DNA of 64,000 nucleotides from Chiloscyllium plagiosum (taxonomy: Eukaryota): contig NC_057718.1 in assembly GCF_004010195.1 (NCBI RefSeq), positions 62,445,928-62,509,927 of the forward strand. Reading direction: 5' to 3'. Under the pieces are notes generated by a model that saw only the letters and a program-made list of their open reading frames with translations, had not been told where the DNA came from and did not search any database. This document shows, piece by piece, positions 1 to 61,415 of the stretch. Within the stretch, counting starts at the first letter, position 1, and each line of letters begins with the position of its first letter. Made by a program: the position numbers and the translations under genes.

Positions 1-205
1 TTGCATTTCCAAAGCCCCTCCCCCAAGTCCCTCCTCCCTACCTTTTATCTTAGCCTGCTGGACACACGTTCCTCATTCATGAAGAAGGGCTTAGGCCCGA
101 AACGTCGATTCTCCTGTTCCTTGGATGCTGCCTGACCTGCTGCGCTTTTCCAGCAACACATTTCCAGCTCTGATCTCCAGCATCTGCAGCCCTCACTTTC
201 TCCTC
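1..205 (+). mobile_element. Penelope-like element terminal repeat (family A) with a mutated hammerhead motif
   Basis: Same sequence as the termini of the GIY-YIG elements at 41590-43180 and 48905-50016; motif aTGAAGA-a-GGGC..GCCC-GAAA-CGTC at 79-106. Confidence 0.75.
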
Positions 206-2020
206 AATTTCTTTAGTTCATCCAGCATTCCATATACCTACCAACCTTTCCTTTCACCCTAACAGGAATATACTTTCTCTGGGCTCTCGTTATCTCATTT
301 CTGAAGGCTTTCCATTTTCCAGCCGTCCCTTAACCTGCGAACATCTGCCCCCAAACAGCTTTTGAAAGTTTTTGTCGTCAAAATTGGCCTTTCTCCAATT
401 TAGAACTTCAACTTTTAAATCAGGTCTGTCCTCTTCCATCACTATTTTAAATCTAATAGAATTATGGTTGCTGGCCCCAAAGTGCTCCCCCACTGACACC
501 TCAGTTGCCTGCCCTGCCTTATTTCCCAAGAGTCGGTCAAGTTTTGCACCTTCTCTTGTAGGTACATCCACGTACTGAATCAGAAAATGTTCTTGTACAC
601 ACTTAACAAATTCCTCTCCATCTAAACCCTGTACACTATGGCAGTCCCAATCTATGTTCGGAAAGTTAAAATCCCCTATCTTAACCACCCTATTATTTTT
701 ACAGATAGCTGAGATCTCCTTACAAGTTTGTTTCTCAATTTCCCTCTGACTATTAGGAGGTCTTTAATACCATCCCTATAAGGTGATCCCAATAACAGAG
801 AACCTATTTCTCAGTTCCACCAAAATAACTTCTCTGGATGTAGTTCCGGGAAGGTCCTCCCTCAGCACAGCTGTGATGCTATCCCTTATCAAAAACGCCA
901 CTCCCCCTCCTCTCTTGCCTCCCTTTCTATCCTTCCTGTAGCATTTGTATCCTGGAACACTAAGGTGCCAGTCCCACCCATCCTTGAGCCATATTTCTGT
1001 AATTGCTATGATATCCCAGTCCCATGTTCCTAAACATGCCCTGAGTTCATCTGCTTTCCCTGTTAGGCCCCTTGCATTGAAATAAATGCAGTTTAATTTA
1101 TTACACCTACCTTGTCCCTGACTATTTGACTTGTTTCTGTTCTCAACTGTACTAGTCTCAGATTGATCTCTTTCCTCACTACCTCCCTGGGTACACCCCC
1201 CCACCCCTCCCCAGCTTACTAGTTTAAATCCTCCTGAGCGACTCTAGCAAATCTCCCTGCCAGTATATTAGTCCCCTTCCAATTTAGGTGCAAACCGTCC
1301 TTCTTGTACAGGTCACTTCTACCCTAAAAGAGATTCCAATGGTCCAAAAATGTGAATCCTTCTCCCATACACCAGCTCCTCAGCCATGCATGCATCTGCT
1401 CTAGCCTCCTATTCCTGCCCTCAGTAGCTCGTAGCACCAGGAGTAATCCAGATATTACTACTCTCGAGGACCTCCTTTTTAAATTCCTGCCTAACTCTAT
1501 GTAATCTCCCTTCAGAATCTCAACCTTTTCCCTTCCTATGTCGTTGGTTCCAATGTGGACAATGACCCCTTGCTGGCACCTTTCCCCCTTGAGAACATTC
1601 TGCACCCTCTCTGAGACATCCTTGATCCTGGCACCAGGGAAGCAACACATCATTCTGATTTTTCGCTGCTGGCCACAGAAACGTCTGTCTGTACCTCAGA
1701 CTAGAGAGTCCGCTAACACAACTGATCTCTTGGAACCCAACGTACCCTTCATTTCATTACAGCCAGTCTCAATACCAGAAACTTGGCTGGTCATGCTACA
1801 TTCCCCTGAGAATCCATCACCCCCTACATTTTCCAAAACAGCATACTTATTTGAAATGGGTATAGCCACAGAAGGCTCCTGCCCTAGCTGCCTATTCTCT
1901 TACCTTTCCTTGAGTTAACCCATTTATGTGACTGTATCTGAGACTTCCCCCCCTTCCTATAACTGCCATCCATCACATACTGTTGCTGTTGCAAATTCCT
2001 CATTGCTTCTAACTGTCTCT
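206..2020 (-). mobile_element. CR1 LINE fragment: ORF1 SGNH esterase and ORF2 APE endonuclease, degraded
   Basis: ORFs 1324-1653 (FPGARIKDV..VIVHIGTND), 776-1204 (CIYFNARGL..IIAITEIWL..RGGGVA) and 290-688 (GDFNFPNIDW..SNHNSIRF). Confidence 0.9.
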
Positions 2021-5910: not shown

Positions 5911-6104
5911 AAGATTTTATTTTATCTAGCAGGTTATAAATTTGCTCCTGAGCTGGTAGATGAAGAAGGGCTCATGCCCGAAACGTCGATTGTCCTGCTC
6001 CTTGGATGCTGCCTGACCTGCTGTGATTTTCCAGCACACATTTTCAGCTCTGATCTCCAGCATCTGCAATCCTCACTTTCTCCTTTGTTTAGCATGTCCC
6101 AGGA

Positions 6105-7335
6105 TGGATACATTATCCCAGTTGAACTGGTGTTCCTCTTGATTTGTGTGTATGGATACCAGTGATAATTATTCATGTCTTTTGGTGGCTAGTTGGTGCT
6201 CATGTATCCTGGTGCTAGTTTCCTGCCCATTTGTCCAATGTAATGTTTGTTGCAGTCCTTGCAGAGTATCTTGTATATAACATTCATTCTGCTGGTTGAT
6301 GGTACGGATTCCTTTTAATTTATCAGGAGCTATTTCAGTGTGGTGGTAGGTTTGTGGGCTACCAAGATGCCGAGGGACCAGAGTAGCTGGTCGTCATCTC
6401 CAAGATATCTTTGATGTACGGCAGGGTGGCTAGTCTCAGGGCGTGTTGTGTCTTCTTGTTTAGGTCTGTTGTGCAGGAATCTGCGGACTGCGCTTATCCC
6501 GTCATTCCTGAATACGTTATATAGGTGTTTGTACTCGGCTTCTCCTAGTCCCTGGGTGCTGCAGTGTGTTGTGGCTCATTTAAATAATATCCTGATGCAG
6601 CTCTGTTTGTGGGTGTTGGGATGATTGCTCCTGTAGTTGAGATGTAGTCAGTGTGTGTGGCTTTCCTGTAGATGCTGGTCTGTAACTCTCCATTGGTTTT
6701 TCGTTCTATTGTGATGGAAGAGGTGTCTGTTATTGTTGTCTTCCTTTTTGGTGAACTTTATACCTGTAAGGATGTTGTTTATATATTTGTGGGTTTATTC
6801 TAATTTGTTGCGTTTCATGACGATAAAGGTATCATCCACATAGCGGATGCAAAGCTTGGGCTGGATCATGGGAAGGGCTGTTCATTCTAACCTCTGCATA
6901 ACTGCTCCTACTATAAGCCCTGATATTGATGATCCCATTGAGTTGTTTGTAGACCTCGTCATTGAAGGGGAAGTGAATTGGAAGGCACAGGTCCGCTAGT
7001 TTGAGGATGCTGTCCTTGCTGATGGAGTTGTTGCTGTCAGGTGTTTGTGTCCTTGATTCGTCTAGCAGGGAGGCCAGTATTTCTTTGGCGAGGGTGATGT
7101 TTATTATTGTGAATAGCGCCATCACATTGAAGGTGACCATGACCTCGTCGTCCTCTATCTTGGTGTCTTTGATGATGTTAATGAATTCCTGGATGGGAGT
7201 GGATGGAGTGGATTGAGTCTTCTACTAGGTGTTTCCGTTTGCGTTGCAGTTCCTTTGCTAGTCTGTATGTCAGTGAACCAGGAAGTGAGACTATGGGTCT
7301 GAGGGGGGCCCACTCCATCTACTCCAGTTTGAAGT
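6105..7335 (-). mobile_element. Penelope-like element RT/GIY-YIG remnant
   Basis: ORF 6832-7140 (MVTFNVMALFT..ILKLADLCL.IHF.FN..VYKQ) parallels the Penelope RT at 12247-12545. Confidence 0.75.
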
Positions 7336-11520: not shown

Positions 11521-11553
11521 ACCACTCTCAGCTTTTTAAGTTGCTTCACTCAT

Positions 11554-12803
11554 TGTTGTGGTTCTGTTCGCCGAGCTGGAAGTTTTTGTTGCAAACATTT
11601 CGTCCCCTGGCTAGGCGACATCATCAGTGCTTGGGAGCCTCCTGCGAAGCGCTTCTTTGATGTTTCCTCCGGTGTTTATAGTGGTCTGTCCCTGCCGCTT
11701 CCGGTTGTCAGTTTCAGCTGTCCGCTGTAGTGGTTGGTATATTGGGTCCAGGTCGATGTGTTTGTTGATGGAGTTTGTGGATGAATGCCATGCCTCTAGG
11801 AATTCCCTGGCTGTTCTCTGTCTGGCTTGCCCTATGATAGTAGTGTTGTCCCAGTCAAATTCACACACACGCAGACAACAAGCAACATGAATTCGACTGG
11901 GACAACACTACTATCATAGGGCAAGCCAGACAGAGAACAGCCAGGGAATTCCTAGAGGCATAGCATTCATCCACAAACTCCATNNNNNNNNNNNNNNNNN
12001 NNNNNNNNNNNNNNNNNNNNNNNNNNNNNNNNNNNNNNNNNNNNNNNNNNNNNNNNNNNNNNNNNNNNNNNNNNNNNNNNNNNNNNNNNNNNNNNNNNNN
12101 NNNNNNNNNNNNNNNNNNNNNNNNNNNNNNNNNNNNNNNNNNNNNNNNNNNNNNNNNNNNNNNNNNNNNNNNNNNNNNNNNNNNNNNNNNNNNNNNNNNN
12201 NNNNNNNNNNNNNNNNNNNNNNNNNNNNNNNNNNNNNNNNNNNNNNTTGTCAATCGAAGTGAACAGTGCTGTCACGTCGAATGATATCATGGTTTCTTCT
12301 TTGTCTATGTTCTGACCCAGAGTTTGGGTTGAATTTGTGGTAAGACTGTTTGTTCTAACCTTTGCATTACCACATCTGCTATGAGTCCCGAGATCGCTGA
12401 GCCCATGGTGTTCCGTTGATTTGTTCGTATATCTGGTTGTTGAATGTGAAGTGTGTTGTGAGGCACAAGTCCAGTAGTTTAAGTATGCCGTCTTTGTTGA
12501 TAGGTTCAGCATCCTGTTTTCTGTTCTGTATGTCCAGTAGGTTGGCAAACTCCATCAACAAACACATCGACCTGGACCCAATATACCAACCACTACAGCG
12601 GACAGCTTAAACTGACAACCGGAAGTGGCAGGGACAGACCACTATAAACACCGGAGGAAACATCAAAGAAGCGCTTCGCAGGAGGCTCCCAAGCACTGAT
12701 GATGTCGCCTAGCCAGGGGACGAAACGTTTGCAACAAAAACTTCCAGCTCGGCGAACAGAACCACAACAACGAGCACCCGAGCTACAAATCTTCACACAA
12801 ACT
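11554..12803. mobile_element. Penelope-like element (family C) with inverted terminal arms, internal hairpin and RT fragment
   Basis: 11554-11780 is the inverted repeat of 12545-12770. 13-bp flanking direct repeat TTGCTTCACTCAT (11541-11553, 12804-12816). RT fragment MISFDVTALFTSID; GIY-YIG C-terminal AREFLEAWHS. Spans an N-gap. Confidence 0.85.
12693..12732 (+). ncRNA. Minimal type-I hammerhead ribozyme motif (family C)
   Basis: GCA-CTGATGA-T-GTCGCCT-agcc-AGGGGAC-GAAA-CG-TT-TGC: stem I GCA/TGC, intact core, palindromic ACGT stem III, GUU triplet. Confidence 0.8.
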
Positions 12804-12816
12804 TTGCTTCACTCAT

Positions 12817-16600: not shown

Positions 16601-17008
16601 TAGCATGCTGGCCTTCATAAAAAGAGGAATTGAGTATAGGAGTAAGAAGGTCCTTCTGCAGCTGTACAGGGCCCTGGTGAGACCGCACCTGGAGTATTGT
16701 GTGCAGTTTTGGTCCAAATTTGAGGAAGGTCATTCTGGATATTGAGGGAGTGCAGCGTAGGTTCACAAGGTCAATTCCCAGAAAAGCAGGTTTCTCATAT
16801 GTTGAAAGATTGGAGCGACTGGGCTTGTACACACTTGAGTTTAGAAGGATGAGAGGGGATCTGATTGAGATGTATAAGATTATTAAAGGATTGGACACTG
16901 TGGAGGCAGGAAGCATGTTTCCACTGGTGGGTGAGTCCAGAACCAGATGACACAATTTAAAAATAAGGGGTAGGCCATTTAGAACAGAGCTGAGGAGAAG
17001 CTTCTTCT
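13690..17008 (+). mobile_element. CR1 LINE, near-complete degraded ORF2 (EN+RT)
   Basis: ORFs 14067 (GVIYRPPNS..MGDF..SDHNMI), 15011 (KSPGPDGLHPRVLKE), 15679, 16016 (VVYLDFQKAFDKVPH) and 16699. Confidence 0.92.
15321..15739 (+). mobile_element. 5'-truncated CR1 3' end nested in the larger CR1
   Basis: Interrupts the host RT frame between ..VDAL and IFQCS..; ends in a TTATGTTCTATGTT tail. Confidence 0.75.
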
Positions 17009-17045
17009 GCTTGCAGATTTGCTCGCTAAGATGGAAGGTTCATTT

Positions 17046-17085
17046 CCAGACATTTCATCACCCTACTAGGTAACATCTTCAGTGG
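17046..17085 (-). ncRNA. Minimal hammerhead ribozyme motif (family D) in a short Penelope-type fragment
   Basis: Minus strand CCA-CTGAAGA-T-GTTACC-tagtag-GGTGAT-GAAA-TG-TC-TGG; stem I CCA/TGG, GUC triplet, stem III decayed (CG>TG). Confidence 0.65.
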
Positions 17086-17104
17086 GCCTAGTTGTTGATG
17101 TACA

Positions 17105-18615: not shown

Positions 18616-18617
18616 AT

Positions 18618-23296: not shown

Positions 23297-23297
23297 T

Positions 23298-31652: not shown

Positions 31653-31853
31653 TGAGAGAAAGTGAGGGCTGCAGATGCTGGAGATCAGAGCTTAAAATGT
31701 GTTGCTGGAAAAGCGCAGCAAGTCAGGCAGCATCCAAGGAACAGGAGAATCGACGTCTCGGGCATAAGCCCTTCTTCAGGAAACCTTCTGAAGAAAGGCT
31801 TGTGCCCGAGACGTCGATTCTCCTGTTCTTTGGATGCTGCCTGACCTGCTGCG
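31653..31853. mobile_element. Fold-back mini-element (family A) with two inverted hammerhead-like motifs
   Basis: Arms 31712-31781 and 31785-31854 are inverted repeats; 14-bp TSD CTAGAACCAGTCTT at 31639-31652 and 31854-31867. Confidence 0.85.
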
Positions 31854-32639: not shown

Positions 32640-35600
32640 GCAATCTTGGTAATGGTCACATAGCCAAACCATAGCTTTCAGGGAAGTGAAGAAACAACTA
32701 TCATCTAAGGTGATGGCACACCAAGATCCCAAGTGAGATCTAGTATTGACATGTGATGCCTCTCCATACGGGTAGTATTAGCTTATAGGTGGTCCAACAG
32801 AGAGGAATGCACAATAGTGTATGCCTCCAGGACTTTGGCTAATGCAAAGCAAAAATAGGCCCAGTTAGAGAAGGAAGGTTTGGCATCATACTTGGAGTCA
32901 GGAAGTTCCATTACTTATGAATGTAAATTTGTAATAATAATGGATCAGAAGCCCCTGCTAGGTCTAGTGGGAGGCAGCCCAAGGCATCTGCATTTCCACT
33001 TGACCTCCCAGACGGTGTTCAAACTTATAATTGTACAAACTCAGAATAAGAGCTCGTTACTTAATTCAACCTGAAGCTATGGGCGGCACAACCCTATCCT
33101 CTTTACAATATTGGTTGAACTTGCTCACACCAAAGATGACCGCCAAATCTTCCTTCTCTATTGGGTCATATCTTCATTTGGCATAAGCCAAAGTCCAGGA
33201 AGCATAAGCTATTGGGCATTCCTCTTCGCTAGGCCATCGGTGAGCCAATACTATCCCGACACCACATAGGGAGGCATCACAATTCAGCTTCACGTCTTGC
33301 TTGGGAACATAGTGTGCCAACAACTTAGACAAAAGCTGTTTCTTCATTTCTGTAAAGGCTACATCTTGGCTATGAATCTACTTTCAAGGCTGACCCTTTT
33401 TCAACTGTAGTTGTAAAGGTGCCAGGATGAAGGCCCGGTTACATATGACTTTTCCATAATAATTCACCAACCCAAGAAAAGACCTAAGCTGCAGTACAGA
33501 TGTGGGAGCTATTGATCACCCTCATTTTATCTTCCAATGGATGTAACCCAGCTTTATCAACTCTGTAGCCGAAGTTGGTCGCTTGGGATGCCTGGAATAC
33601 ACAATTTTCCCTCCTAAATAGAACACTCACCTTGGAGGACATAGTACTTGAGCATTACAGAACTTGAAATGTTATTTATTGGTCTTCCTGGTTATTAGCA
33701 TGTCATCCAGATAAATGACAACCTGGGATAGACCTTGTAAAGCATTTTCCAACATCTGCTGGAAAATGGCACAGGCTGATAGCATACTTTTAGGAATCCT
33801 TATTAATTGCACTTGCAGGCACACATAGCTTACTTCCAGCTTCATGAAGGACAACACCCCTCCACCAATATTGCATTTATGTCCACTATGCAAGGGATTG
33901 GGTATTTATCCAGCTGCAAGTTTTAGTTTGCTGTTTGTTTTAAATCTCCACAAAGGCAAACCAACCACTCAGGTTTCACAATCTGTATGACTGGTGGTGC
34001 ACACTGGACTTGTTTGATGATTGTTTCACTTTTCAACATACTAATTTCTGTGTCTACTTTTGCACGTACGGCATATGGTACTGGGTGGGCCTTGCAGAAT
34101 CATGGAATTGTTTCTTGGTCAACATGTAAGGTGGCCTTGGCCCCTTTGATAATCACTAGGCCTTCGTGAAAAGTGTACGGGTGTTTGGATATCACTCAGG
34201 CAACCATTTTCTAATTGAAAAAAGTTGAGCCTATCAAGGTGAATCGTTCTCAACCAATTTTGCCCCATTAAGGTTGGGCCTGAGCATTTTACTAAAATCA
34301 GTGGTAACTGAACCGGCTGCTTCTCTTAAGAGACCGGACCCAAAGTTGTATTCTCAATCTGTCAGGCCTAGCCAAGGTCTTATGAAAACTTAAGGGTCGG
34401 AATCCAGTGCAAATTTTGTTAAAGACCAGTTCCACAATCAGTGATTCAGCTGTGTCGGTTTCGATCTTCGTTAGAACTGGGTGATCATTTAAGCTGACAT
34501 TTATTGTAATTAATTCTGATTTAGACTGGTCTATGAGATCTCTTATTTAATTCAGGCCTAGTGAGACTCTCTTGCTGTCTTGATTCCTTATACCGGTAGG
34601 AGAGAGTGAGGACTGCAGATGCTGGAGATCAGAGCTGAAAATGTGTTGCTGGAAAAGCACAGCAGGTCAGGCAGCATCCAAGGAGCAGGAGAATCGATGT
34701 TTCGGGCATGAGCCTTTCTTCAGGAAGGATCTCAAAAACTTGGATCCTCAAAAATTTTAACTGTTTAGCTGAGGCTTGGCTTTGTTTAGGGGCTTTGCTG
34801 TGGACTGACCTGGAGTTCCTGTGTTCAGGATATGTCCTGAGTGAGGCTATGCAATCACCTTTATTAAAGTGGTCTTTCTCAAGCTCAGTCAGACTGGCAA
34901 GGGTGTCCACTTCCATTGGTGTACCCTGTGTTATGAAGGTGTAGAGGTGCTGTATCTTTTAAGAGAGTTGAAAACTAGCAAAACTGCCTGCCACAGCACC
35001 AAGAGTTCTGAACAAGGTAACGATGTAACACATGATCGACACAGATAGTAGCTGGGTTGCCATGAGATAAAAACAAATTCAAATTTGGTCAATCAGTTTA
35101 ATATTAAAACCAATGAAACAATCTGATGTTTTAGGCTACAAAACCAGACATTTTGAACAGCTAGAGAGAGAACTACCAAAAGACCAACACATAGAGGCTG
35201 CTAGCTCAAGAGGTCTCTGAGAGGTACCTGTCTGTGGGGAGTCTGCGCCGCAGAATATCGAAACTGACCTGGAGAGAATCTACAGAGGAGACTCAGCAAA
35301 GCTGACTGGTTTAGAAACATGAATTGTTTTGTAACTCTAAATCGGGATTTTTGTATCTGACAAATATTGTAGATGGGGAGGTAGAAGATAGGTTTAAGAG
35401 AAAGGAGTTGTAAATAATTGTTAGTTTTAATATTCTCTGTTGGACTTAAAGAATAAAGTTGTTAATTTTTATTTATCTCTAGTATAGTTCTTTGCCCCTC
35501 AAAATTTAACAGATTACAGCACGGGGTGAATCTTTTCTGTGTTGTTGGTTTAAATTAGCAGAGGGTTTACCTCATAACACCTGAAAGTCATAAACTCCAC

Positions 35601-39198: not shown

Positions 39199-40121
39199 GT
39201 ACTGTAAGTTACTGTTGTAGTCATCACTAAAGAATATTACATTAAAACGTATCAAATTAACAAATCCAATTGATTGTTGTTGGAATTATTACTTATTTCT
39301 CTTAAGGCTGGAAGCCTGTAAGATTGTTTCAAGGAATTGCTATAAAGCAATCTGACTTCCTTATGTTTAAAGTAACACCATTTATAGAAATTCTTCTTCA
39401 GTTTCCTGGCATAATTTTAGTTTGGGTCACATATAACAATGAAAATTTCTGATTGCTGTTTTCTAATAATAAATCTAATATTGGTTTCTTAATAGATTTT
39501 TTTGACAAAACATTAATAAGATGTATTACTTTATTTTTACTGTTAAAAATCACACAACACCACTTTATAGTCCAACAGGCTTATTTGGAAGCATTAGCTT
39601 TTGGAGTGCTGCTCCTTCAACAGGTGGTCGTGAAGTATAGGATCGTAAGACACAGAATTTATTGCAAATGTTTACAGTGTGATGCAACTGAAATTATATA
39701 TTGTTTGTTAAGTCTCTCATGTTTTAGAATGACTGTGTTAGTTTCAGTTCTTTCATATGTAAATCCCAAGCCTTATTTTTTGAAGTTACATTCTCAAGTG
39801 AACTTTAACAATAGATGCCATGTTAGCCAAGATAATGCACTGAGGTGTGAGGTGCCTTGTGCGAGGCTATCTGTGCCCCAATGTTCAGACTGATTCTATT
39901 TCTAAAAAAGGGATTTAAAGAATTTTACATGGATTCATGCAGTTTTACAGCAAAGTAAAATGTAATTCTGCAAGTACAAATTCACCTCACAAATTTGTGT
40001 GTGTGTATGTGTATGTGCGCGTGTAAAGGGGTATACGTCTGTGAGAGGGTGTGTGTGAGAGAGTGAGTGTATATGTGTGAATGTATGAGAGCGTCTGCGT
40101 GAGTGTATGGGTCTGTAGGAA

Positions 40122-40158
<37 letters not shown>

Positions 40159-40266
40159 AGTGCAGTGGGGTCACCTGTCGTGTGACATGAACCCAAGGTC
40201 CCATGGGGATGGCCTCAACTGGGACCTTGGTTTCATGTCACACTATAGGTGACCCCACTGCACTAT

Positions 40267-40490
40267 GTTAAAAATCACACAACACCAGGTTATAGTCCAA
40301 CAGATTTAATTGGAAGCACACTAGCTTTCGGAGCGACGCTCCTTAATCAGGTGATGAAGGATCACCTGATGAAGGAGCGTTGCTCCGAAAGCTAGTGTGC
40401 TTCCAATTAAACCTGTTGGACTATAACCTGGTGTTGTGTGATTTTTAACTTTGTACACCCCAGTCCAACACCGGCATCTCCGAATCATGA
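40267..40490. mobile_element. Nested fold-back mini-element (family B) with two inverted hammerhead motifs
   Basis: Arms 40267-40355 and 40361-40449; 12-bp TSD CCACTGCACTAT at 40255-40266 and 40491-40502. Confidence 0.88.
40363..40397 (+). ncRNA. Minimal type-I hammerhead ribozyme motif (family B)
   Basis: CAC-CTGATGA-A-GGAGC-gtt-GCTCC-GAAA-GC-TA-GTG: stem I CAC/GTG, 5-bp stem II, palindromic AGCT stem III, CUA triplet. Confidence 0.82.
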
Positions 40491-41589
40491 CCACTGCACT
40501 ATACACACATACACACACAAGTTTGTGGGGTGAATTTGTACTTGCAGAATTACATTTTATTTTGCTCAAGAACTGCATGAATCAATGTAAGATTCTGTAA
40601 ATCCCTTTTTTTAGAAATAGAATCAGTCTTAACATTGGGGTACATGCAGCCTCCCACAGAGCACCTCACACCTTCAGTGTATTATCTCAGCAGACATGGC
40701 ACCTGTTGTTAACGTTCACTTAAGAATGTAACTTTTTTAAAAAAGGTCTGAGATTTACATAAGAAAGAACTGAAACTAACATGGTCATTCTAAAAAATGA
40801 GACTTTACAAACATTGCAGGTCTTTTTCAATATACAATTTCAGTTGCATCACACTGTGCATGTTTGCTATAGATTCTGTGTCTTATGATCTTATACTCCA
40901 CCTGATACTCCATCCGATCTTATACAACCACCTGATGAAGGAGCAGTGCACTAAAAGCTAGTGCTTCCAAATAAACTTGTTGGATCATAACCTAGTGTTG
41001 TGTGCTTTTTAACTTGGTAATTCAGCACCTCCAAATCTTTACTTTTTACATTATCGAAAATCTTTAGTCTGAAAGATATAATTTAAATAGTCATGCAAAA
41101 TTAATTAAAAGCTAATTTCTTAATGGCATCTGGCCTTCATATGGGAAATAGCAAAAGATTATCATAAAAGGGAGATGTATTTGCAGAATGCTTATCTTGA
41201 TTTCGATGTTCCTTGAAATATTTTTCACTTTAGGTCCTAATGACGACAGTTTTCATCATCTTGATTACAATAGTACTTTAACATTTCCATCATTTTGGAA
41301 ACACACTGCTCCATTCTGCAAACATCTGGAGTACGGTATTCAGTTTGGTCACTGAATCTCAGGAAAGATGTATTTGTCTTGGATGAAGTGCAGAAAAGTT
41401 CAGCATGGATGATAATGGGGCTTAACGAGTGTTACGAATGCAACTTACGTTCCCTTGAATATGAAGGATTGAGGGCGATGTGATCCAAATGGTTAAAATA
41501 TTAAAATTAATTGATGAGAGATGTAGAGAAATTATTTTGTCTAGTGGAGGAATCCAGACTATGGAGGATATAATTATAAAATTTAATTA

Positions 41590-43180
41590 GGAGAAAGTGA
41601 GGACTGCAGATGCTGGAGTACCAGAGTTGAAAAATGTGGTACTGGAAAAACACAGCAGGCCAGGCAGCATCCAAGGACCAGGAGAATCGACGTTTCGGGC
41701 ACAAGCCCTTCAGGAATGAGGCTGGTGTACCAAGCGGGCTGAGATAAAAGGTAGGGGAGAGGGAATTTGGGGGAGGGGCGCTGGGAATACAATAGGTGGA
41801 AGGAGATGAGGGTGAGGGTGATAGGCCGGAGAGGGAGTGGGGGCGGAGAGGTCGGAAAGAAGATTGCAGGTCAAGAGGGCGGTGCTGAATCTGAGAGTTG
41901 GGACTGAGATAAGGTGGGAGGAGGGGAAATGAGCGGCACCACATGGACCCCAGCTATGCCTGCCTCTTCGTTGGATATGTGGAACAGTCCATCTTCCGCA
42001 GCTACACTGGCACCACCCCCCACCTTTTCCTCCANNNNNNNNNNNNNNNNNNNNNNNNNNNNNNNNNNNNNNNNNNNNNNNNNNNNNNNNNNNNNNNNNN
42101 NNNNNNNNNNNNNNNNNNNNNNNNNNNNNNNNNNNNNNNNNNNNNNNNNNNNNNNNNNNNNNNNNNNNNNNNNNNNNNNNNNNNNNNNNNNNNNNNNNNN
42201 NNNNNNNNNNNNNNNNNNNNNNNNNNNNNNNNNNNNNNNNNNNNNNNNNNNNNNNNNNNNNNNNNNNNNNNNNNNNNNNNNNNNNNNNNNNNNNNNNNNN
42301 NNNNNNNNNNNNNNNNNNNNNNNNNNNNNNNNNNNNNNNNNNNNNAACCAGGACAGAACCCCACTGGTCCTCACCTTCCACCCCACCAACCTCCGGATAC
42401 ATCGTATCATCCTCCGTCATTTCCGCCACCTCCAAACAGACCCCACCACCAGGGATATATTTCCCTCTCCATCCTTATCATCATTCAGGAGAGACCACTC
42501 CCTCCGCGACTCCCTCATCAAGTCCACACCCACTACTAACCCAACCTCCACTCCCGGCACCTTTCCCTGCAACTGCAAGAAGTGCAAAACCTGCGCCCAC
42601 ACCTCCCCCCTCACCTCCCTCCAAGGCCCCAATGGATCCTTCTATATCCGTCGCAAATTCACTTGCACCTCCACACACATCATTTATTGTATCTGCTGCA
42701 CCCGATGTGGTCTCCTCTACATTGGGGAGACAGGCCGCCTACTTGCGGAACGTTTCAGGGAACACCTCTGGGACACCCGCACCAACCAACCCAACCGCCC
42801 CGTGGCTGAACTCTTTAGCTCCCCCTCCCACTCTGCCAATGACATGCAAGTCCTTGGCCTCCTCCATCGCCAGACCCCGGCTACATGACGCCTGGAGGAA
42901 GAGCGCCTCATCTTCTGCCTAGGAACCCTCCAACCACACGGGATGAATGTAGATTTCAGCAGCTTCCTCATTTCCCCTCCCCCCACCTTATCTCAGTCCC
43001 AACCCTCGGATTCAGCACCGCCCCACAGCCGTAGTTATGTGACTGGCCAGGACTTTTATCCCAGCCCACTTGGCACACCAGCCTCATTCCCGAAGAAGGG
43101 TTTATGCTCGAAACGTCGATTCTCCTGGTCCTTGGATGCTGCCTGGCCTGCTGTGTTTTTCCAGCATCACATTTTTCAAC
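41590..43180 (+). mobile_element. Penelope-like element (family A) with GIY-YIG endonuclease region and an inverted terminal arm
   Basis: CKKCKTC..FTCTSTHIIYCICCTRCGLLYIGETGRLLAERFREH (ORF 41914); RT motif M.PSYACLFVGYVE; termini are inverted repeats. Spans an N-gap. Confidence 0.9.
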
Positions 43181-43468
43181 TAAGATTTGAATTAGGCCAT
43201 TTAAAGTGAAATTAGGAGCAGCTTTTGCACACAACTTATTATAAATCTGGAAACCTCCATCCAAAAGAGTATAGATGCTAAGATGAATGAAGCTTGCAAG
43301 ACAGAGAATAAAAATTGTTAACTGAAGGTATGGAAATGTATAAAGTGTCCATGAGTCTACTGGAAGAGCAGATTAGACTTGAGCTGCAATAAATATTCCT
43401 ATTCCTTGTGACCGGCATTATAAGTCTAACTTTGTGAATAATGACTGGTTGCTGAAATTATTAATTAT

Positions 43469-43890
43469 TGTGGTTCTGTTCGCCGAGCTGGAAGTTTTTG
43501 TTGCAAACATTTCGTCCCCTGTCTAGGTGACATCCTCCGTGCTTGGGAGCCTCCTGTGAAGCGCTTCTGTGGTGTTTCCTCCGGCATTTATAGTGGCCTG
43601 TCCCTGCCGCTTCCGGTTGTCAGTTTCAGCTGTCCGCTGTAGTGGCCGGTATATTGGGTCCAGGTCGATGTGTTTGTTGATGGATTTTGTGGATGAGTGC
43701 CATGCTTCTAGGAATTCCTGGCTGTTCTTTGTTTGGCTTGCCCTATATAGTGTTGTCCCAGTCGAATTCATGTTGCTTGTTGTCTGCGTGTGTGTAGACA
43801 GGGGACGAAACGTTTGCACAAAACCTTCCAGCTCGGCGAACAGAACCACAACAACGAGCACCCGAGCTACAAATCTTCATCCAAACTTTG
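43469..43890. mobile_element. Fold-back Penelope terminal fragment (family C)
   Basis: Matches 11554-11880 and 12715-12803; flanked by ATTATTAATTAT / ATTATCAATTAT. Confidence 0.8.
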
Positions 43891-45989: not shown

Positions 45990-46252
45990 TGATGTGGAGG
46001 TGCTGGGTTGGAGTTGTGTGAACAAAGTAAAAAATTACACAATACCAGGTTATATTCAAACAGGTCTATTTGGAAATACAAGCTTTCAGAGCACTGCTCC
46101 TTTGTCAGGTAGCTAGTGGGGCAGGATCATAGGACACAGGTTTATAGTAAAAAGTTCTGCTCCACTAGCTATCTGACGAAGGAGCAGCGCTCTGAAGCTT
46201 GTACTTCCAAATAAATCTGTTGGACTATAACCTGGTGTTGTATGAGTTTTAA
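45990..46252. mobile_element. Fold-back mini-element (family B), degraded hammerhead pair
   Basis: Inverted arms 46030-46120 and 46163-46252; same consensus as 40267-40490. Confidence 0.75.
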
Positions 46253-48997
46253 TATCGTTTCAGTGTGCAGAGAGAAGAGGAGAAAATGTGAGAGTGACGA
46301 ATTGTAAGCAGGGAAAATGTTTTGTGTGTGAGAAAGGACTTATGGAAATTAGAAGGAATTGTCACAAAACAGATTCATTATAATAGAAAGCTGGATGCAA
46401 ACTGCAAAGTGTGGGTAAAAACACATATGCCCAGGATTTCCTGTTGGGAGTACAATTAGAATGTCGATTTGTGAATGCCAATTTTAACAATGCAGATTTA
46501 TTTTAGCATTTCCAGTGAAACTAATTACACTAAATGAAAGTGTAGGAAAATGAGATTTGCATTCCAGCCATTAAATAAATTCTGAGATTATGTATATTTT
46601 TTAAGAATAGCCAAATGTAGTATTTCTTTAACATTCATCCAAAATTAACTTGAGGGTTTGCTTTTTATGGTTCTCCAGTTTAATGCTTTGTGATTTCTTT
46701 TAATTTTGTGATTATTCAACAGTTAGAGACCTTCTAAAATTCCACAGTTCAACACAATCTCTTTTAGCTATTTTCCTAAAGTCTGTGATCAATCTGTAAT
46801 ATCACTGATCAGAACACATGTCTGTCTCTATAAAATATCGTATGGATTATTATGATAAAGAAGAATTGGGCAGTCAAATTTAGCTATTATTACTTCATAC
46901 TGAGAAAACATTGCAGCTAAAGCTGTAAATCATTGACAATTAAATCAGAAGAAATAGTTTTGAGGTGTTCCAAATTCTTTATACAGGAAAATGAACATTT
47001 TTTAAAAAAGTGCAGTGAGAAGAAAACGTGATCTATGAGCATTTGCAGTTTAATAATGTACTTGGATTTTGAAATAATAGAAAATGACAAATGGCTTTTG
47101 ATTAATTTGGAGCTTCAAATTAATTTCTAAGTTACAACTTCAGTGATGGATGTTAAATGAGACCAATGGATTAAATCTTTTTCTTTTCTTCAGTTGCCTT
47201 TAATATGCAAAGGCTTGAGGTAAATTTGTTGCAGCTGAAACTTTATTGCTGGAACAGCACAGCAGGTCAGGCAGCATCTAGGGAACAGAAGATTCGACGT
47301 TTCGGGCACATGCCCTTCTTTGTTGCAGCCCACCATATGAATATGAAGTGATCTACATTTTACTGAAAGTCACTTTTGTAGAGTGTAGGGGTCAGAAAAA
47401 CAATGGTTTATTTCCTATCATGAACATATTTTGTTAATTCAGCTTCAAAGTAGCTACCTAGCAACACTTCATTTATTTGTTCAGTGAGTACATCGAAATC
47501 TGCTGTGTGCTAAATTGGCTATATTGTTTTCTTGGTTTTAAATATGCATATTTACTTGTTACAAATATTTTTTAATTATCAACGCCCCCTGCCAAATTTA
47601 TTTCTCAATACATTGAAAAAATGCCCAAAAACATTGCAATTCAGACAGTTGTAATGACATTTGTGTACCAGTTTCATTGAAGAGATCTCAAAACTAAATG
47701 ATGAGAATGGACAGAAAAGTTTGTTTACAAATTTACACCTATTCTGAACTGCAAAAGTGAAGGAAATGTGATTTGTACATTTTTTTGTTTTTAGATCAGA
47801 AGCTCAAAGTTATGCTTTTGAGTCATTGAGAGTCCAGGAGAAGGCTTTTGGAGAACTGAGGCAAAAAAACCCAAAAGATTCAGTGTGACTCAAATTTCCT
47901 TCATTTTTTACATTAAAACATTGTGCCATAATTTGGATAGAAATTAACCAGGCCTTCCAAACCTTAATACTTTCTAACAGTAAACAGAATAGATAAGAAT
48001 CGAATAAACAGGAAATTCTGGGAAAACACAGCAAGTCTACTGGCATCAGATGAGAGAAAACGTGATTTAATGTTTCATGCCTGTGATCTTTCATCAGAAT
48101 TACAGTTTTTCTCTTCACAGATGCTGCCAATTCTGCTATGTATTTCCAATATTGTTTTTATGTTAGACTTTTACCATCCCCAATATTTTTGTTGGAAAGA
48201 AACCAAAATTGATGGTGGAACATGTACATTGTATAGAAGTCTAATGTACACGCAATTAAATATACCCAATTAATAGAATTTAATTACATTACAGACTCCC
48301 AATTGTGGGAGGGAAATAGAAGAGGAAATGTGTAGACATCAACAAAATAAATAGGAATAATTTAGAATAATTAGATTTTAATTCAATGATTGACTAAGAG
48401 AGAGAAGAATGAAAGTAGTAAAAAGGAAATCCTACAACGTTCATTCTTTTAAGGAATATTATTACATGTTTACATAGGTAGAGACATTGCTTGATCAGTT
48501 TAGAGTGAAAAAGTAAATCAACTAGATCACGAAATGTGTGAGTACTATTGAATTTATTTTAAGCATTAAAGCAAGTGTACCAGATTGCTGTGGGGCAGAA
48601 TTTAGGAAGGAATCTGGTCATGATGAGGTCAGAAAAGAAAAAAACTTGACATTAGGGACTGATAGATCAACAGTTATTGAAAAAGAAATAGCAAAGATTC
48701 AGCTGAAATAGGTACCATAAAAAAAGAGTTTAATATTTCAAGATACTGTCCTAAATAAATGTTAGAAACTAACAAAATTGGAGAAAATGGCAAGTGGGTC
48801 TTTCTGGGATGATAGTAGTGTCCAAACTTCTGTAGAGGGAGGAAGAGAGCTTCTTCAAGGAAGGCATCCTTGTAAGAGGATTCGCAGTAGGTTGAAATCT
48901 TTGAGGACAAAGTGAGGTCTGCAGATGCTGGAGATCAGAGCTGGAAATGTGTTGCTGGAAAAGCGCAGCAGGTCAGGCAGCATCCAGGGAACAGGAG

Positions 48998-49033
48998 AAT
49001 CGACGTTTCGGGCATAAGCCCTTCTTCAGGAAT
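48998..49033 (-). ncRNA. Minimal hammerhead ribozyme motif (family A), intact core
   Basis: Reverse complement reads ATTC-CTGAAGA-A-GGGC-ttat-GCCC-GAAA-CG-TC-GATT. Confidence 0.72.
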
Positions 49034-49920
49034 GGGGAAAGTTTGTCCAGCAGGCTAAGATAAAAGGTAGGGAGGAGGGACATGGGGGAGGGGCGTCGGA
49101 AATGTGATAGGGGGAAAGAGGTCAAGGTGAGGGTGATAGGTCAGACGGGAGTGGGGGCGGAGAGGTCGGGAAGAAGATCTCAGGTTAGGAAGGCGGTGCT
49201 GAATTCGATGGATTTGACTGAGACAAGGTAGGGGGAGGGGAAATGAGGGAACTGGTGAAATCCGAGTTCATCCCTGGTGGTTGGAGGGCTCCTAGGCGGA
49301 AGATAAGGCGTTCTTCCTCCAACCGTCGTTTTGTTGTGGTCTGACGATGGAGGAGTCCAAAGACCTGCATATCCTTGGTGGAGTGGGAGGGGGAATTGAA
49401 ATGTTGAGCCACAGGATGGTTGGGTTGGTTGGTCCGGGTGTCCCAGAGGTGTTCTCTGAAACGCTCCGCAAGTAGCCGGCCTGTCTCCCCAACATAGAGG
49501 AGGCCACATCGGGTGCAGAGGATGCAATAGATGATATGTGTGGAGGTACAGGTGAATCTGTGGCAGATATGGAAGTTTCCTTTGGGGCCTTGGAGGGAGG
49601 TGAGGGGGGAGGTGTGGGCGCAAGTCTTGCACCTACGGCGGTGGCGGGGGAAGGGGCCGGGAGTGGAGGTTGGGTTGGTGGCGGGTGTGGANNNNNNNNN
49701 NNNNNNNNNNNNNNNNNNNNNNNNNNNNNNNNNNNNNNNNNNNNNNNNNNNNNNNNNNNNGCCTTCCTAACCTGAGATCTTCTTCCCGACCTCTCCGCCC
49801 CACCCCAGTCTGACCTATCACCCTCACCTTGACCTCTTTCCACCTATCACATTTCCGACGCCACTCTCCCAAGTCCCTCCTCCCTACCTTTTATCTTAGC
49901 CTGCTGGACAAACTTTCCCC

Positions 49921-49956
49921 ATTCCTGAAGAAGGGCTTATGCCCGAAACGTCGATT
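49921..49956 (+). ncRNA. Minimal hammerhead ribozyme motif (family A), intact core
   Basis: ATTC-CTGAAGA-A-GGGC-ttat-GCCC-GAAA-CG-TC-GATT; GUC triplet, palindromic ACGT stem III, weak stem I. Confidence 0.72.
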
Positions 49957-50779
49957 CTCCTGTTCCCTGGATGCTGCCTGACCTGCTGCGCTTTTCCAGC
50001 AACACATTTCCAGCTCCAAACCTCTGAGTCAGGATACTCGGATTCAAGTCGCACTTGGCTCCAGATGTGTGTCATAATATCTCTGCAACAGGTTGATGAG
50101 AAAAAAGCTCTGGGAACACTAAAATTAGAAAAGGTTTATGGAGGAATATGAGGAACAGATCTCAAATAGAAAGCCTAGCTGTTAACTTTTATTGTACAAA
50201 TATGCCAGTCAGAATTGCTAAAAGTAAGATGGGACCTTTAAGGAGACTGCAGGAAGTAGACAATAGATGAAAATTGGTGAGTTACCTCAGTTAGAGTATT
50301 TTTATGACACAGAAGCAGGCATTTCGGTCCATCAACACTGTGCCAGCTTTCCAGAGCAATCCAATTAATCAGATACCTGGGCTCCATTAACATAACCATG
50401 CAAGATTACTTCTTTTATAGCAATTTACTATTGATCACCTGCTTTGCAGCAATTTCCAGGTCATCACTACGTCCTGCGTAAACCATTTCTTCCTTGCATC
50501 TTTTCTGCATCTCTTGTCCAAAGTTTAAAGTATGCATCTCCCAGTCTTGTACCTTCAGCTAACAGGAGCAGCTTTTCCTGGTCTACCATATCCAAGTTGT
50601 TAACTCTCACCTCCATCCCCTTTACTACATTGAGAATAAGTCCGGTATCTGCAACTTAGCCTTTCAACTAAAATCCCTCATTCTTTTAATATTTCCTGTC
50701 ATTCTTTTCAAGACACAACAATCATGTTGTGGTCAAAGCAGACTTGTTAAAAGTTCAACATAACTTTCCTGGTTTTGGT

Positions 50780-57932: not shown

Positions 57933-59479
57933 GTGGGTAATAATGATATGTATCTATTTCTGTAAAGGGCTATAATTGGACCTTTTCATGTTATCCTGAT
58001 GAGTATACTTGTTTTACGAAATTCTTTACTGGAACATAAAAATGGCGTATTTTTGAACTGAGTGGATAGATTTAGATGAGCCAGATCCTGGTTGTGGTAG
58101 GTAAAGTGTGCAAACATGTAAGCTATTACAATGATTTAAAAACAAATATTAATCATCTGACAGCATTTTGAAAGGCTTAAAGTTAAGACACTTCGGAATT
58201 CCATGATTCAATTTAATTACTCAGTGCCTTCCTATTAATGTAACAAAATGTCTCATGGCATATTACAGGGCAAATTGGTAGAGAAATTAGTGGCAATAAC
58301 TGAGATACAGTAGAAATTTTGGAAGAAATGTAGTGTTGTAAAGATATTCATGAAGAGAATCTGAGTCTTGAAGCCTGGAGGATATTGTTAAGACAAGCAT
58401 GTTTTCTTCCAGACTGTGAAGATTGTGAGCTTTGGTATATAGTTGCCGAATATCCACTGTGTCCCTGGAACTATGGTGTGGTGGGATTTTGCAAGCTGGG
58501 TGTTGAAATTGCTACTGCTGGGAGACTGGGAAGAAATGGTGGATGACCAGAATATGAGTGAGCTTTGGGATAGCTTACAAACTCTGGACTCCTAAATTAG
58601 TTTCGAGTTTTCATTGCATAGAGCTGAGGAGGTTGGCAAGGAGAATGTTGGACAAATAAGATCCATGTTAGCACTTATGCTCACAGTGCAAACAGTAGGC
58701 ATAAGTTGACATAAGAACAGTTTATTCACTTGTGATGCCTTGTGTTACAGGGAACCCCACATTCTGAAAACTTTGTACTTGTGCAGGTGGTGCCTCCTTT
58801 CCACAAAGAAGATAATAAAGTCATTGCCATTTCCAAATATTATGTCATTTATTTTAATATATGTGTGCACTGTTTTGGTGCAAAAAGAAATACTACACAA
58901 AAGCTTCGTACTGTGGTTATATTTATGACATGGTTCAGACTTTGTCCTGTTTCAGCAATTGTCAAGATTACTTTACAGCAAATGATGCAGCAATAATGTC
59001 CTCCTTTGTGGGGCAGATGATGCAGACTGTCTTGTTTAGGAGATGTGATGGGAGCTACAAATGTGAGACTTGAGGCAATAGTGGTGCAGACAAAACATCT
59101 CTGATGTTACAACTGCATTGGTTGGTTATGTATGAACTGCTCTTCCACATGAACACAGTCATGACCTTTGAACCCAAAAGATGTATTCAGTGGTATCAAC
59201 TTACAACTTAAGTGACAGCCACAACTGAAGAATGAAAGCAAGCACATTAAGATCCCAGAAAATGTCTTCATGGTGCACAGCTCAAAGTTACCACCTTTAG
59301 TTCTAGAGTTTGGTGAAACTAGGGAGGTAGGACACAAGTTTAGTTGAGCTGAGAAAAATGCAATTGACTGCACTCCTGGTGTCTGCCCACAGTGGGAATC
59401 TGAGGGTAGGGATAGGAATGGGATCATTTAGACCTGACACATTGGATGAGTGGCAGTGAGGACTTCCCTTGTTACTAAT

Positions 59480-61415
59480 TTTTTTAATCGAATGTTTGAC
59501 GTCGGTGGTGGGCAAGTTGTTGGAGGGAATCCTGAGTGTCAGGATGTACATGTATTTGGAAAGGCAAGGACTAACTAGGGACAGTCAACATGGCTTTGTG
59601 TGTGGGAAATCATATCTCACAAACTTGATTGAGTTTTTTGAAGAAGTAACAAAGAGGATTGATGAGGGTAGAGCAGTAGATGAGATCTATATGGACTTCA
59701 GTAAGGTGTTTGACAAGGTTCCCCATGGGAGACTGATTAGCAAGGTTAGATCTCACGGAATACAGGGAGAACCAACAATTTGGATACAGAACTGGCTCAA
59801 AGGTAGAAGACAGAGGGTGGTGGTGGAAAGTTGTTTTTCAGACTGGAGGCCTGTGACCAGTGGAGTGCCACAAGGATCAGTGCTGGGTCCTCTACTTTTT
59901 GTCAATTACATAAATAATTTGGATGCGTGCATAAGAGGTACAGTTAGTAAGTTTGCAGATGACACCAAAATTGGAGGTGTAGTGGACAGCAAAGAGGATT
60001 ATTTCAGTTCAAAGTTTGTGCGAAGATTTGTAGCTCGGGTGCTCGTTGCTGTGGTTCTGTTCGCTGAGCTGGAAGTTTTTGTTGCAAACGTTTCGTCCCC
60101 TGGCTTGGCGACATCATCAGTGCTTGGGAGCCTCCTGCGAAGCGCTTCTTTGATGTTTCCTCCGGTGTTTATAGTGGCCTGTCCCTGCCGCTTCCGGTTG
60201 TCAGTTTCAGCTGTCAGTTTCAGCCATGATTATATTGAATGGTGGTGCAGGCTCGAAGGGCNNNNNNNNNNNNNNNNNNNNNNNNNNNNNNNNNNNNNNN
60301 NNNNNNNNNNNNNNNNNNNNNNNNNNNNNNNNNNNNNNNNNNNNNNNNNNNNNNNNNNNNNNNNNNNNNNNNNNNNNNNNNNNNNNNNNNNNNNNNNNNN
60401 NNNNNNNNNNNNNNNNNNNNNNNNNNNNNNNNNNNNNNNNNNNNNNNNNNNNNNNNNNNNNNNNNNNNNNNNNNNNNNNNNNNNNNNNNNNNNNNNNNNN
60501 NNNNNNNNNNNNNNNNNNNNNNNNNNNNNNNNNNNNNNNNNNNNNNNNNNNNNNNNNNNNNNNNNNNNNNNNNNNNNNNNNNNNNNNNNNNNNNNNNNNN
60601 NNNNNNNNNNNNNNNNNNNNNNNNNNNNNNNNNNNNNNNNNNNNNNNNNNNNNNNNNNNNNNNNNNNNNNNNNNNNNNNNNNNNNNNNNNNNNNNNNNNN
60701 NNNNNNNNNNNNNNNNNNNNNNNNNNNNNNNNNNNNNNNNNNNNNNNNNNNTTCACAACATCCTTCCTATCTGAAAGATGTTGTGAAACTTGAAAGGGTT
60801 CAGAAAAGATTTACAAGGATGCTGCCAGGGTTGGAGGATTTGAGCTACAGGGAGAGGCTGAACAGGCTGAGGCTGTTTTCCCTGGAGCGTTGGAGGCTAA
60901 GACTTTATAGAGGTTTACAAAATTATGAGGGGCATGGATAGGGTAAATAGGTACAGTCTTTTCCCTGGGGTGAGGGAGTCCAGAACTAGAGGGCATAGGT
61001 TTAGGGTGAGAGGGGAAAGATATAAAAGAGACCTATGGGGCAACTTTTTAATGCAGTGGGTGGTACGTCTATGGAATGAGCTGCCAGAGGAAGTGGTGGA
61101 GGCTGGTACAATAGCAACATTTAAGAGGCATTTGGATAGGTATATGAATAGGAAGGGTTTGGAGAGATATGGGTCAGGTACTGGCAGGTGAGACTAGATT
61201 GGGTTGGAATATCTGGTCGGCATGGATGGATTGGACTGAAGACAAAAGTGAGGACTGCAGATGCTGGAAACCAGAGTTTAGATCAAAGTGGTGCTGGAAA
61301 AGCACAGCAGGTTAGGCAGCATCCGAGGAGCAGGAAAATCGACGCAAAAGCCCTTCATCAGGAATAGAGGGGTCTGTTTCCATGCTGTACATGTCTATGA
61401 CTCTATTACTCTAAC
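59480..61415 (+). mobile_element. CR1 LINE RT and 3' UTR, interrupted by Penelope fragments (60007-60215, 61240-61368) and an N-gap
   Basis: SQHGF..YMDFSKVFDKVPH..GVPQGSVLGP..FADDTK; 3' tail TCTATGACTCTAT. Confidence 0.9.
60084..60123 (-). ncRNA. Minimal hammerhead ribozyme motif (family C), intact core
   Basis: Reverse complement GCA-CTGATGA-T-GTCGCC..GGGGAC-GAAA-CG-TT-TGC. Confidence 0.75.

Follow-up and report, generated by a model that had tools for sequence, protein, structure and literature searches.

Minimal type I hammerhead motifs in 3' end-pieces of Penelope-like elements of Chiloscyllium plagiosum, and U6 junctions that may record their cutting

Introduction

Minimal hammerhead ribozyme motifs have been described from the pseudo-long terminal repeats (pLTRs) of metazoan Penelope-like elements (PLEs), according to the available part of the report by Cervera and de la Pena (2014, PMC4209133). 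Here we analyze a stretch of 64,000 nt from Chiloscyllium plagiosum (contig NC_057718.1, positions 62,445,928 to 62,509,927; hereafter the window), in which about 20 such motifs had been predicted, together with further copies from the 3.56-Gb assembly of 101,977 contigs. The flagged motifs are very probably minimal type I hammerheads residing in the 3' end-pieces of at least four PLE lineages, and they represent additional members of this already described class. Most window copies are dead, mutated relics rather than potential catalysts. The more interesting part lies outside the window, in genomic junctions with U6 small nuclear RNA (snRNA) that would record ribozyme cutting in vivo.

Several features are shared with the published motifs, as far as the accessible text of PMC4209133 describes them. 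Both are type I motifs without a stem III loop and with palindromic 15.2/16.2 pairing, and both have an unpaired base between A9 and 10.1, a G-C pair at 10.1-11.1, a stem II of 4-7 bp and a short stem I. Several covarying families per genome, a predominance of single truncated copies and some opposite-strand pairs 100-700 bp apart are likewise common to both. The two differ in abundance and host, since the same text gives ~4,000 copies for coelacanth and ~9,000 for Xenopus, compared with ~53,000 exact or near-exact matches to four motifs in the present, cartilaginous-fish-like host.

The Poseidon PLE PAc of Anolis carolinensis (Frangieh et al. 2024, PMC11167929) offers a second comparison, as it also carries a hammerhead at the junction with the start of its open reading frame (ORF). 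The PAc ORF begins at stem II, and a protein-binding RNA region lies within its first 172 bases, just 3' of the hammerhead (PMC11167929). Reverse-transcription starts 30-40 bases apart and cutting with extension of both DNA strands are further points in which the elements studied here probably resemble PAc. Family C departs from PAc in that the endonuclease frame of the previous unit also ends in the motif. Furthermore, no RNA ends at the cut site were found in the PAc study, whereas U6 junctions fall at the cut site here.

Metazoan non-LTR retrozymes share with these elements, in the parts of the sources available (PMC7229834; 10.64898/2026.07.22.740005), non-coding hammerhead repeats related to PLE pLTRs. 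They are described there as head-to-tail tandems with canonical type I hammerheads and circular RNAs, whereas the window holds minimal motifs and no array; tandem units each carrying a hammerhead, the hallmark of a retrozyme, were not found in it.

Hammerhead motifs in the window

The sequence was read at each of the 24 positions where a motif had been predicted, and the families were labelled A, B, C and D as in that prediction. All 24 proved to be copies of one of four repeat families, with the motif present or decayed, in agreement with the at least four families proposed. A loose pattern (CTGAWGA-N6-30-GAAA) occurs 22 times in the window, compared with 4.10 ± 1.83 (largest 11) in 100 dinucleotide-preserving shuffles of it. 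A strict descriptor was also applied, demanding in its 5' half a stem I of at least 2 bp, CTGANGA, a spacer of 0-1 and a stem II of at least 3 bp, and in its 3' half GAA and A-NN-T, with NN pairing, followed by an H that is not G. It returned seven sites, where 100 shuffles gave 0.08 on average and 2 at most:

11594-11627, minus strand, family C
12696-12729, plus strand, family C
17049-17082, minus strand, family D
40366-40394, plus strand, family B
49002-49029, minus strand, family A
49925-49952, plus strand, family A
60087-60120, minus strand, family C

When each window copy was aligned to an intact representative of its own family, the invariant core bases were all kept at 8 of the 24 sites, and at least one core substitution or deletion was present at the remaining 16. 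Such lesions include ATGAAGA at 79, GAG for GAA at 31750 and 31788, CTGATTA at 40320 and replacement of GAA by AAA at 39600 and 40930. At the eighth core-intact site (34695), the 10.1-11.1 pair is broken and stem III is not palindromic. The estimate of about 20 minimal hammerheads in the original prediction therefore stands insofar as every site is a genuine family copy, but only 7-8 are intact and 16 are relics. The stems had been read correctly: stem II occurs as GGGC/GCCC in family A, GGAGC/GCTCC in B and GTCGCCT/AGGGGAC in C, and stem I as CAC/GTG, GCA/TGC and CCA/TGG, with only 2 bp in family A. The copies are as follows, with pairs spanning both strands:

49919..50016, plus strand, family A end-piece; core 49925-49952 intact, predicted cut after GTC at 49952
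48938..49691, minus strand, long family A copy; GIY-YIG frame 49188-49691(-), then ~155 bases, then the intact hammerhead 49002-49029(-)
42523..43174, plus strand, second long family A copy; GIY-YIG region 42661-42876, core mutated (CCGAAGA at ~43091)
31653..31854, head-to-head pair of family A; tailed arm 31653-31782(-) and second arm 31788-31854(+), GAG for GAA in both cores
74..170, plus strand, family A relic; ATGAAGA, C3 changed
5961..6050, plus strand, family A relic; C3 lost at the 5' edge
34632..34726, minus strand, family A copy; core bases kept, 10.1 changed from G to A, stem III ACAT
41624..41880, minus strand, family A relic; CTGAAGA with a 3-base deletion
47233..47320, minus strand, family A relic; first core box lost
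61285..61365, minus strand, family A-like relic; stem II 3' strand and GAA deleted
40267..40490, family B head-to-head pair; left arm 40267-40357(-), right arm 40360-40490(+)
39542..39629, minus strand, family B relic; CTGTTGA, AAA for GAA; outer arm, paired with 40929-41014(+), in a nested inverted arrangement
40929..41014, plus strand, family B relic; AAA for GAA
24153..24292, family B head-to-head relic pair; 24153-24190(-) and ~24202-24292(+)
46026..46252, family B head-to-head relic pair; 46026-46110(-) with CTGACAA, 46173-46252(+) with one GAA base lost
11553..12806, family C head-to-head insertion, interrupted by a run of N at 11984-12246
43465..43689, minus strand, family C relic; CGGAGGA
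60010..60215, minus strand, family C copy; intact hammerhead 60087-60120(-)
17000..17088, minus strand, family D stub; intact hammerhead 17049-17082(-), G-U and U-G wobbles at former CpG sites

Comparison of lineage representatives

Nine lineage representatives were compared, four taken from the window and five met incidentally in the flanks of copies fetched from the genome. The core C3-U-G-A-N-G-A9 ... G12-A-A ... U16.1-H17 is kept in all nine, and each has an unpaired spacer after A9 (A in six, U in three). G10.1 pairs with C in six representatives and with U in three, the latter at former CpG sites. Stem III is invariably a 4-base self-pairing ACGU, AGCU or AUGU with A-U at 15.1-16.1 and no loop, and the 15.2/16.2 pairing is CG or GC, with UG where a CpG formerly stood. 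Stem II measures 4-7 bp and stem I 2-6 bp.

Between unrelated families, flank identity is at the level of chance (4-17 of 45 bases downstream, 7-14 of 40 upstream), whereas the invariant core shows no differences. Positions 2-4 of stem II and 1-3 of stem I, tabulated by script, each show two to five pair types; this bears out the predicted covariation of stem I, to be read with the caveat that the descriptor used to select the representatives itself demands pairing.

The fetched flanks also contain extra hammerhead lineages (L105:733-774(-), L114:2830-2869(-) and L042:3047-3089(+)), the extra forms being one with stem II GGGUC/GACCU, one resembling family A with a 6-bp stem I, and one resembling families C and D with stem II GUUACCU/AGGUAAU.

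Modelling across families was limited by these differences. Alignment with MAFFT failed because stem II lengths differ between families. A covariance model built from lineages C, D and E found only five C/D copies (E ≤8.2e-13), the other 18 rows having E ≥0.48, with no A or B copy found. Folding of monomers recovered stems I and II in families B and D, and in C with extra pairs. Homodimer folds mostly collapsed to long hairpin-to-hairpin duplexes and are uninformative on a hammerhead dimer.

Repeat architecture

Genome copies were fetched through exact or near-exact family motifs, with the backwards pattern as control, which gave 0 matches for every family. The exact 38-mer of family A is present in 27,158 copies and the exact 40-mer of family C in 3,483; the degenerate 32-mer of family B has 20,227 matches, and the 34-mer of family D has 2,482 at up to 2 mismatches, 85 of them exact. 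Together, the four motifs account for ~53,000 exact or near-exact matches.

The shape of the ends was determined in 20 loci of family C and 30 loci each of families A, B and D. Every family has a sharp common 3' end and a variable upstream reach, and in each of the four there are two alternative 3' ends 35-40 bases apart. Counted from the first core base, family C copies end at ~+77 in 13 of 20 loci (short form) and at ~+115 in 7 of 20 (long form). An optional tail combined with heavy 5' truncation is typical of PLEs, according to the accessible text of PMC8557442, and in PAc the optional tail is explained by two internal reverse-transcription starts (PMC11167929). In every copy, the predicted start of the next unit's frame follows the end of the previous unit, implying a template of more than unit length.

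Half of the window sites (12 of 24) form six head-to-head pairs. Three pairs, one each from families A, B and C, were checked, and each lies within one target-site duplication with the tail on a single arm only. The family A pair at 31653..31854 is enclosed by the 13-base duplication TAGAACCAGTCTT (31640-31652, 31855-31867). The family B pair at 40267..40490 lies within the 12-base duplication CCACTGCACTAT (40255-40266, 40491-40502); its left arm, 40267-40357(-), is of the short form with the core CTGATTA, and its right arm, 40360-40490(+), is of the long form with a tail and an intact hammerhead (40366-40394), predicted to cut after CTA at 40394. Around the family C insertion at 11553..12806 stands the 9-base duplication CTTCACTCA (11544-11552, 12807-12815), with a short left arm bearing the hammerhead 11594-11627(-) and a long, tailed right arm bearing 12696-12729(+), predicted to cut after GTT at 12729. 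The family A end-piece 49919..50016(+) is likewise the forward arm of a head-to-head pair with the long copy 48938-49691(-), which is cut off by a run of N at 49692. The PLE protein is known to cut and extend both DNA strands (PMC11167929), and head-to-head pairs within one duplication fit this activity.

Neighbouring sites on the same strand (39600/40320 and 40363/40930) represent arms of inverted insertions nested in one another and not tandem units. No direct tandems or pLTRs were found in the window, where Tandem Repeats Finder gives one unrelated row. The nested arrangement at 39542-41014 consists of outer long inverted family B copies, whose arms include 39756-40018 and 40496-40761 (85% identity), with a young family B stub pair carrying its own duplication inserted near their centre and a second hairpin at 40159-40264.

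Head-to-head stubs at 40306-40410, 46078-46202 and 11818-11933 form near-perfect hairpins that score 33-64 bits against microRNA (miRNA) precursor models, all below the gathering scores in an Rfam scan of the window at E ≤10. Such hairpins are likely a source of false miRNA calls. Genome-wide, head-to-head stubs amount to hundreds of thousands of bases of hairpin-forming DNA that could be mistaken for miRNA precursors or for miniature inverted-repeat transposable elements (MITEs).

Association with Penelope-like genes

In family C, a frame upstream of the hammerhead reads VVYKIPCKDC...YIGQTGR...EH and ends in ...LPSTDDVA, with its TAG stop codon in loop II. Pfam places this tail below threshold (GIY-YIG, 13.6 bits). 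A protein database search returned 35 longer homologues, of which the second best, P0002 (E 8.8e-126), contains both a reverse transcriptase (RT) domain (RVT_1, 67.4 bits) and GIY-YIG (23.3 bits). The tail also aligns with the Pfam-positive GIY-YIG region of P0034 (BLASTP E 7e-21), and the closest named protein is from Chiloscyllium punctatum (87% identity). When the genome was searched with the tail, the best 150 of 93,652 first-look candidates were all at least 94% identical. A shark gene model, P0005, named MAP3K7 isoform X3, is 87% identical to the PLE endonuclease tail over 58% of the query and is probably a PLE fragment absorbed into a gene prediction. Open frames of 962-2,477 aa beside family C tails in the genome search were rejected as artefacts of runs of N, which fill 0.6-7 kb inside the longest copies of family C (loci L051-L053, L046).

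The family C ORF has a predicted start that overlaps with the motif, and copies of the family reach ~125 or 160 bases into this predicted ORF before they end. Judging from these frames, the motif probably lies where the frame of one unit ends and that of the next begins, the two overlapping. Residues 1-53 of the predicted shark gene model P0027 map to 12651-12806, in a frame that differs from that of the endonuclease tail. At 12651-12729(+), as at loci L003 and L025, two reading frames may constrain the family C motif, in addition to RNA structure.

Family D is related to family C (28 of 45 downstream bases identical) and has RT and endonuclease homology directly upstream in the same orientation, as at locus L130, which matches residues 258-702 of P0004 (E 1.9e-128). 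The best match to the family C endonuclease tail at family D loci is 61% identical. The family A GIY-YIG frame scores 22.5 bits in Pfam, against a cut-off of 22.6 (E 1.4e-4), and lies ~155 bases before the hammerhead in two window copies. Between these copies, 42523..43174(+) and 49691-48945(-), collinearity at 84% identity extends from the GIY-YIG region through the hammerhead module. A single frame with RT and, at its C terminus, a GIY-YIG domain can be traced through homologues in families C and D; the domain falls just under the Pfam cut-off in A, and no such frame was found in B.

The identity of the motif carriers as PLEs, which had been proposed from the motif, is supported by the RT and GIY-YIG frames of families A, C and D, by the optional tail and by the inverted 5'-truncated partners. 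The proposal that several PLE lineages each kept the ribozyme accords with the frames of A, C and D; most window copies, however, are relics, and family B could not be linked to a frame.

Four results weigh against this assignment. First, family alignments in which the core is no better conserved than its flanks had been named in the original prediction as an outcome that would speak against it, and among the 20 non-reference window copies this is what was observed (core changed in 22 of 235 positions, downstream flank in 80 of 963; Fisher p = 0.60). We read this pattern as the neutral decay of insertions that are dead, a good part of it at CpG sites; it does not speak against function in master elements. 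The within-family test is not valid for dead copies, and the comparison between lineages is the relevant one. Second, both descriptor and Rfam searches had been proposed; the former yielded the seven strict sites, but Rfam gave no hammerhead at gathering score in the window, none among 17 rows at E ≤10, and none at E ≤10 in the 91- and 81-base stretches around intact C and A motifs. Rfam probably misses the motifs because its models would expect a stem III hairpin, which is absent here. Annotation based on Rfam overlooks these motifs entirely despite the ~53,000 genome matches. Third, full-length copies are interrupted by runs of N, so that RT and endonuclease frames could be read only in part. 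Fourth, no contiguous reading frame was found within ~530 bases upstream in 30 family B loci, and the PLE status of this family is based on its tail, inverted pairs and motif.

U6 junctions outside the window

A hammerhead cut leaves a 5'-OH end. U6 snRNA ends in a tract of five U residues with a 2',3'-cyclic phosphate, and RtcB can ligate this end to 5'-OH RNA, as stated in the available part of PMC6789731. The same source (Moldovan et al. 2019) describes U6/LINE-1 chimeric pseudogenes formed via RtcB, in which a fragment of retroelement RNA is likewise attached by its 5' end to the five-U tract and copied into DNA. Whereas the truncation points of those chimeras vary, the partner here is a PLE tail, joined at one fixed base and accompanied by PLE-type ends and inverted arms. 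A literature search found no paper containing both 'U6 snRNA' and 'Penelope'.

Two of the 30 best U6 loci in the genome run straight into an A-like tail whose first base is the one following the predicted cut. A pattern in which the U6 3' end and a conserved family A word are separated by any 0-30 bases gave five matches, all five at the same spacing, with five T's followed by G1.1. The same pattern with 31-60 bases, a range that includes the far commoner stub 5' end, gave 0 matches; the absence of U6 from stub 5' ends in this search is consistent with ends that are not 5'-OH. The six A-like U6 loci differ in their flanks and in the 5' extent of U6, end in the PLE manner at their 3' side and, in several cases, carry an inverted arm. 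In family B, a single U6 junction was found, also at G1.1. Among the same 30 best U6 loci, ~11 (L160, L167, L168, L172, L177, L180-L185) continue into the 5' end of a tRNA-like short interspersed element (SINE), one of them after a 10-base spacer.

The joining of U6 at the predicted bond, in six A-like loci and one family B locus, gives indirect support for cutting in vivo, and it is likely, on this genomic evidence, that such ribozymes cut in living cells. In vivo cutting by metazoan PLE hammerheads has been an open question since 2014, and U6 junctions at the predicted bond offer a genomic read-out that could be counted across genomes.

Short copies and proposed mechanism

In 19 of 30 family A loci, the 5' end of the forward copy falls within ~10 bases upstream of the first core base. 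Thirteen of these 19 stubs abut an inverted copy and six abut unrelated DNA, with three locus pairs being the two arms of one site. Similar 5' ends occur in ~14 of 30 family B loci, 1 of 20 family C loci and 2 of 30 family D loci. In contigs of three runs from three organisms (the kind of run is uncertain, possibly DNA), the stub 49921-50016 stands at 20-50x the upstream depth, with sharp edges and loose ends at 49920/49921 and 50006-50016. No cap-derived extra G was seen in a small sample of three family A stubs delimited by target-site duplications, in which C, AC and TTC stand between the duplication and the core.

Based on these observations, we propose that the weak, loop-less hammerheads cut in the germ line, that the U6 joins to A-like and B elements, copied into the genome by the PLE's own enzyme, are a DNA record of this cutting, and that the 95-130-base stubs starting at the hammerhead 5' edge, which number tens of thousands, are run-off copies of pLTR-initiated transcript starts rather than random truncations; we hold this proposal at about even confidence. 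In master elements, the hammerhead would likely cut a multi-unit transcript after GUC, CUA or GUU. Cutting probably takes place as a dimer or with help from the element protein, given that stem III consists of no more than a 4-base palindrome. The cyclic-phosphate end of U6 could then be ligated to the ribozyme-made 5'-OH, which would join U6 to the first base after the cut. The element protein, as published PLE work suggests, would nick both DNA strands; reverse transcription would start downstream of the hammerhead, at one of two internal sites, giving the optional tail, and priming on both strands would give head-to-head pairs.

The alternative with the best claim on the same data, though we think it unlikely, is that the short copies, especially those of families A and B, are separate non-autonomous mini-elements, similar to SINEs or retrozymes, that combine a hammerhead with an RT-initiation module and borrow the PLE enzyme. 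The clustering of family A 5' ends near the hammerhead (19 of 30 loci), the sharp-edged 20-50x stub depth, with its uncertain run kind, and the missing frame within ~530 bases upstream in family B would all be expected of such elements, and a preprint derives animal retrozymes from PLE pLTRs in its available part (10.64898/2026.07.22.740005). However, the longer family A copies are collinear into the GIY-YIG frame, and 5' truncation is graded in families C and D; no tandem array occurs in the window, and the stub is without an evident promoter of its own. The same picture would result if the 5' end of a pLTR-started transcript were copied by run-off.

The germ-line cutting proposed above must also be set against several results that speak the other way. 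The minimal hammerheads of PLEs cut poorly in vitro even as dimers, according to the parts of PMC4209133 and PMC6765202 available. Ribozyme mutants of PAc have no effect on insertion, and no RNA-seq reads end at its cut site (PMC11167929). A search for U6 joins gave 0 junctions in families C and D, and a cruder pattern, TTTT followed by the family A post-cut sequence, gave 12 loci, 0 of them with U6. The U6-SINE joins show that U6 can be joined by other routes, such as template switching at the 5' end of an RNA, and the six A-like chimeras, which belong to one subfamily, may descend from a single ligation.

A further reading accepts the conserved core and attributes it to something other than cleavage, such as a protein-binding platform or overlapping coding, so that the motifs would be look-alikes that do not cleave in vivo. 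The family C motif does overlap both the last part of the endonuclease frame and the beginning predicted for the frame that follows, the anole protein-binding RNA lies within the first 172 ORF bases and ribozyme mutants leave insertion in vitro unaffected (PMC11167929), and PLE clades without a hammerhead proliferate well, as reported in the accessible portion of PMC8557442. Nevertheless, the 13 invariant bases, the spacer and the palindromic 15.2/16.2 pairing recur in families with different coding contexts, the family A motif lies ~155 bases past the stop codon, and the stems covary. In two families the U6 join falls exactly on the predicted bond, and the anole motif is cleaved when protein is added, with C3 and G8 mutants abolishing cleavage (PMC11167929). 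We consider this reading improbable.

That the motifs are chance matches, or the hairpins the ends of DNA transposons or MITEs, can be dismissed as next to impossible, since the weak scores of near-perfect hairpins against plant and animal miRNA models are outweighed by the excess of 7 strict sites over 0.08 in shuffles, by retroelement-type, alternative 3' ends with an optional tail, by unequal arms and by the upstream RT/GIY-YIG frame, which already refute it.

Coding fragments and other elements in the window

Two fragments of PLE coding sequence were located in the window by tblastn:

6076..7309, minus strand, decayed PLE RT and endonuclease coding fragment, found with P0004, P0015 and the family C tail protein
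12249..12549, minus strand, PLE RT fragment inside the family C insertion, matching residues 423-529 of P0027 at 83-95% identity

The first is not contiguous with any same-strand hammerhead.

The window also contains remnants of other retroelements. Fragments resembling a gamma-retroviral provirus occupy 20436-23118(+), with Pfam matches to Gag_p30 (E 2e-24) and the TLV_coat env (E 1.1e-8) and a match just under the cut-off to the murine leukaemia virus (MLV) integrase C-terminal domain (E 1.5e-6); a run of N follows at 23336-23653. A long interspersed nuclear element (LINE) fragment at 14046-16002(+) comprises an endonuclease and a weak RVT_1 match. Another at 293-1695(-) places a GDSL-type esterase beside an endonuclease/exonuclease/phosphatase domain, a layout that presumably corresponds to that of some CR1/L2-like LINEs.

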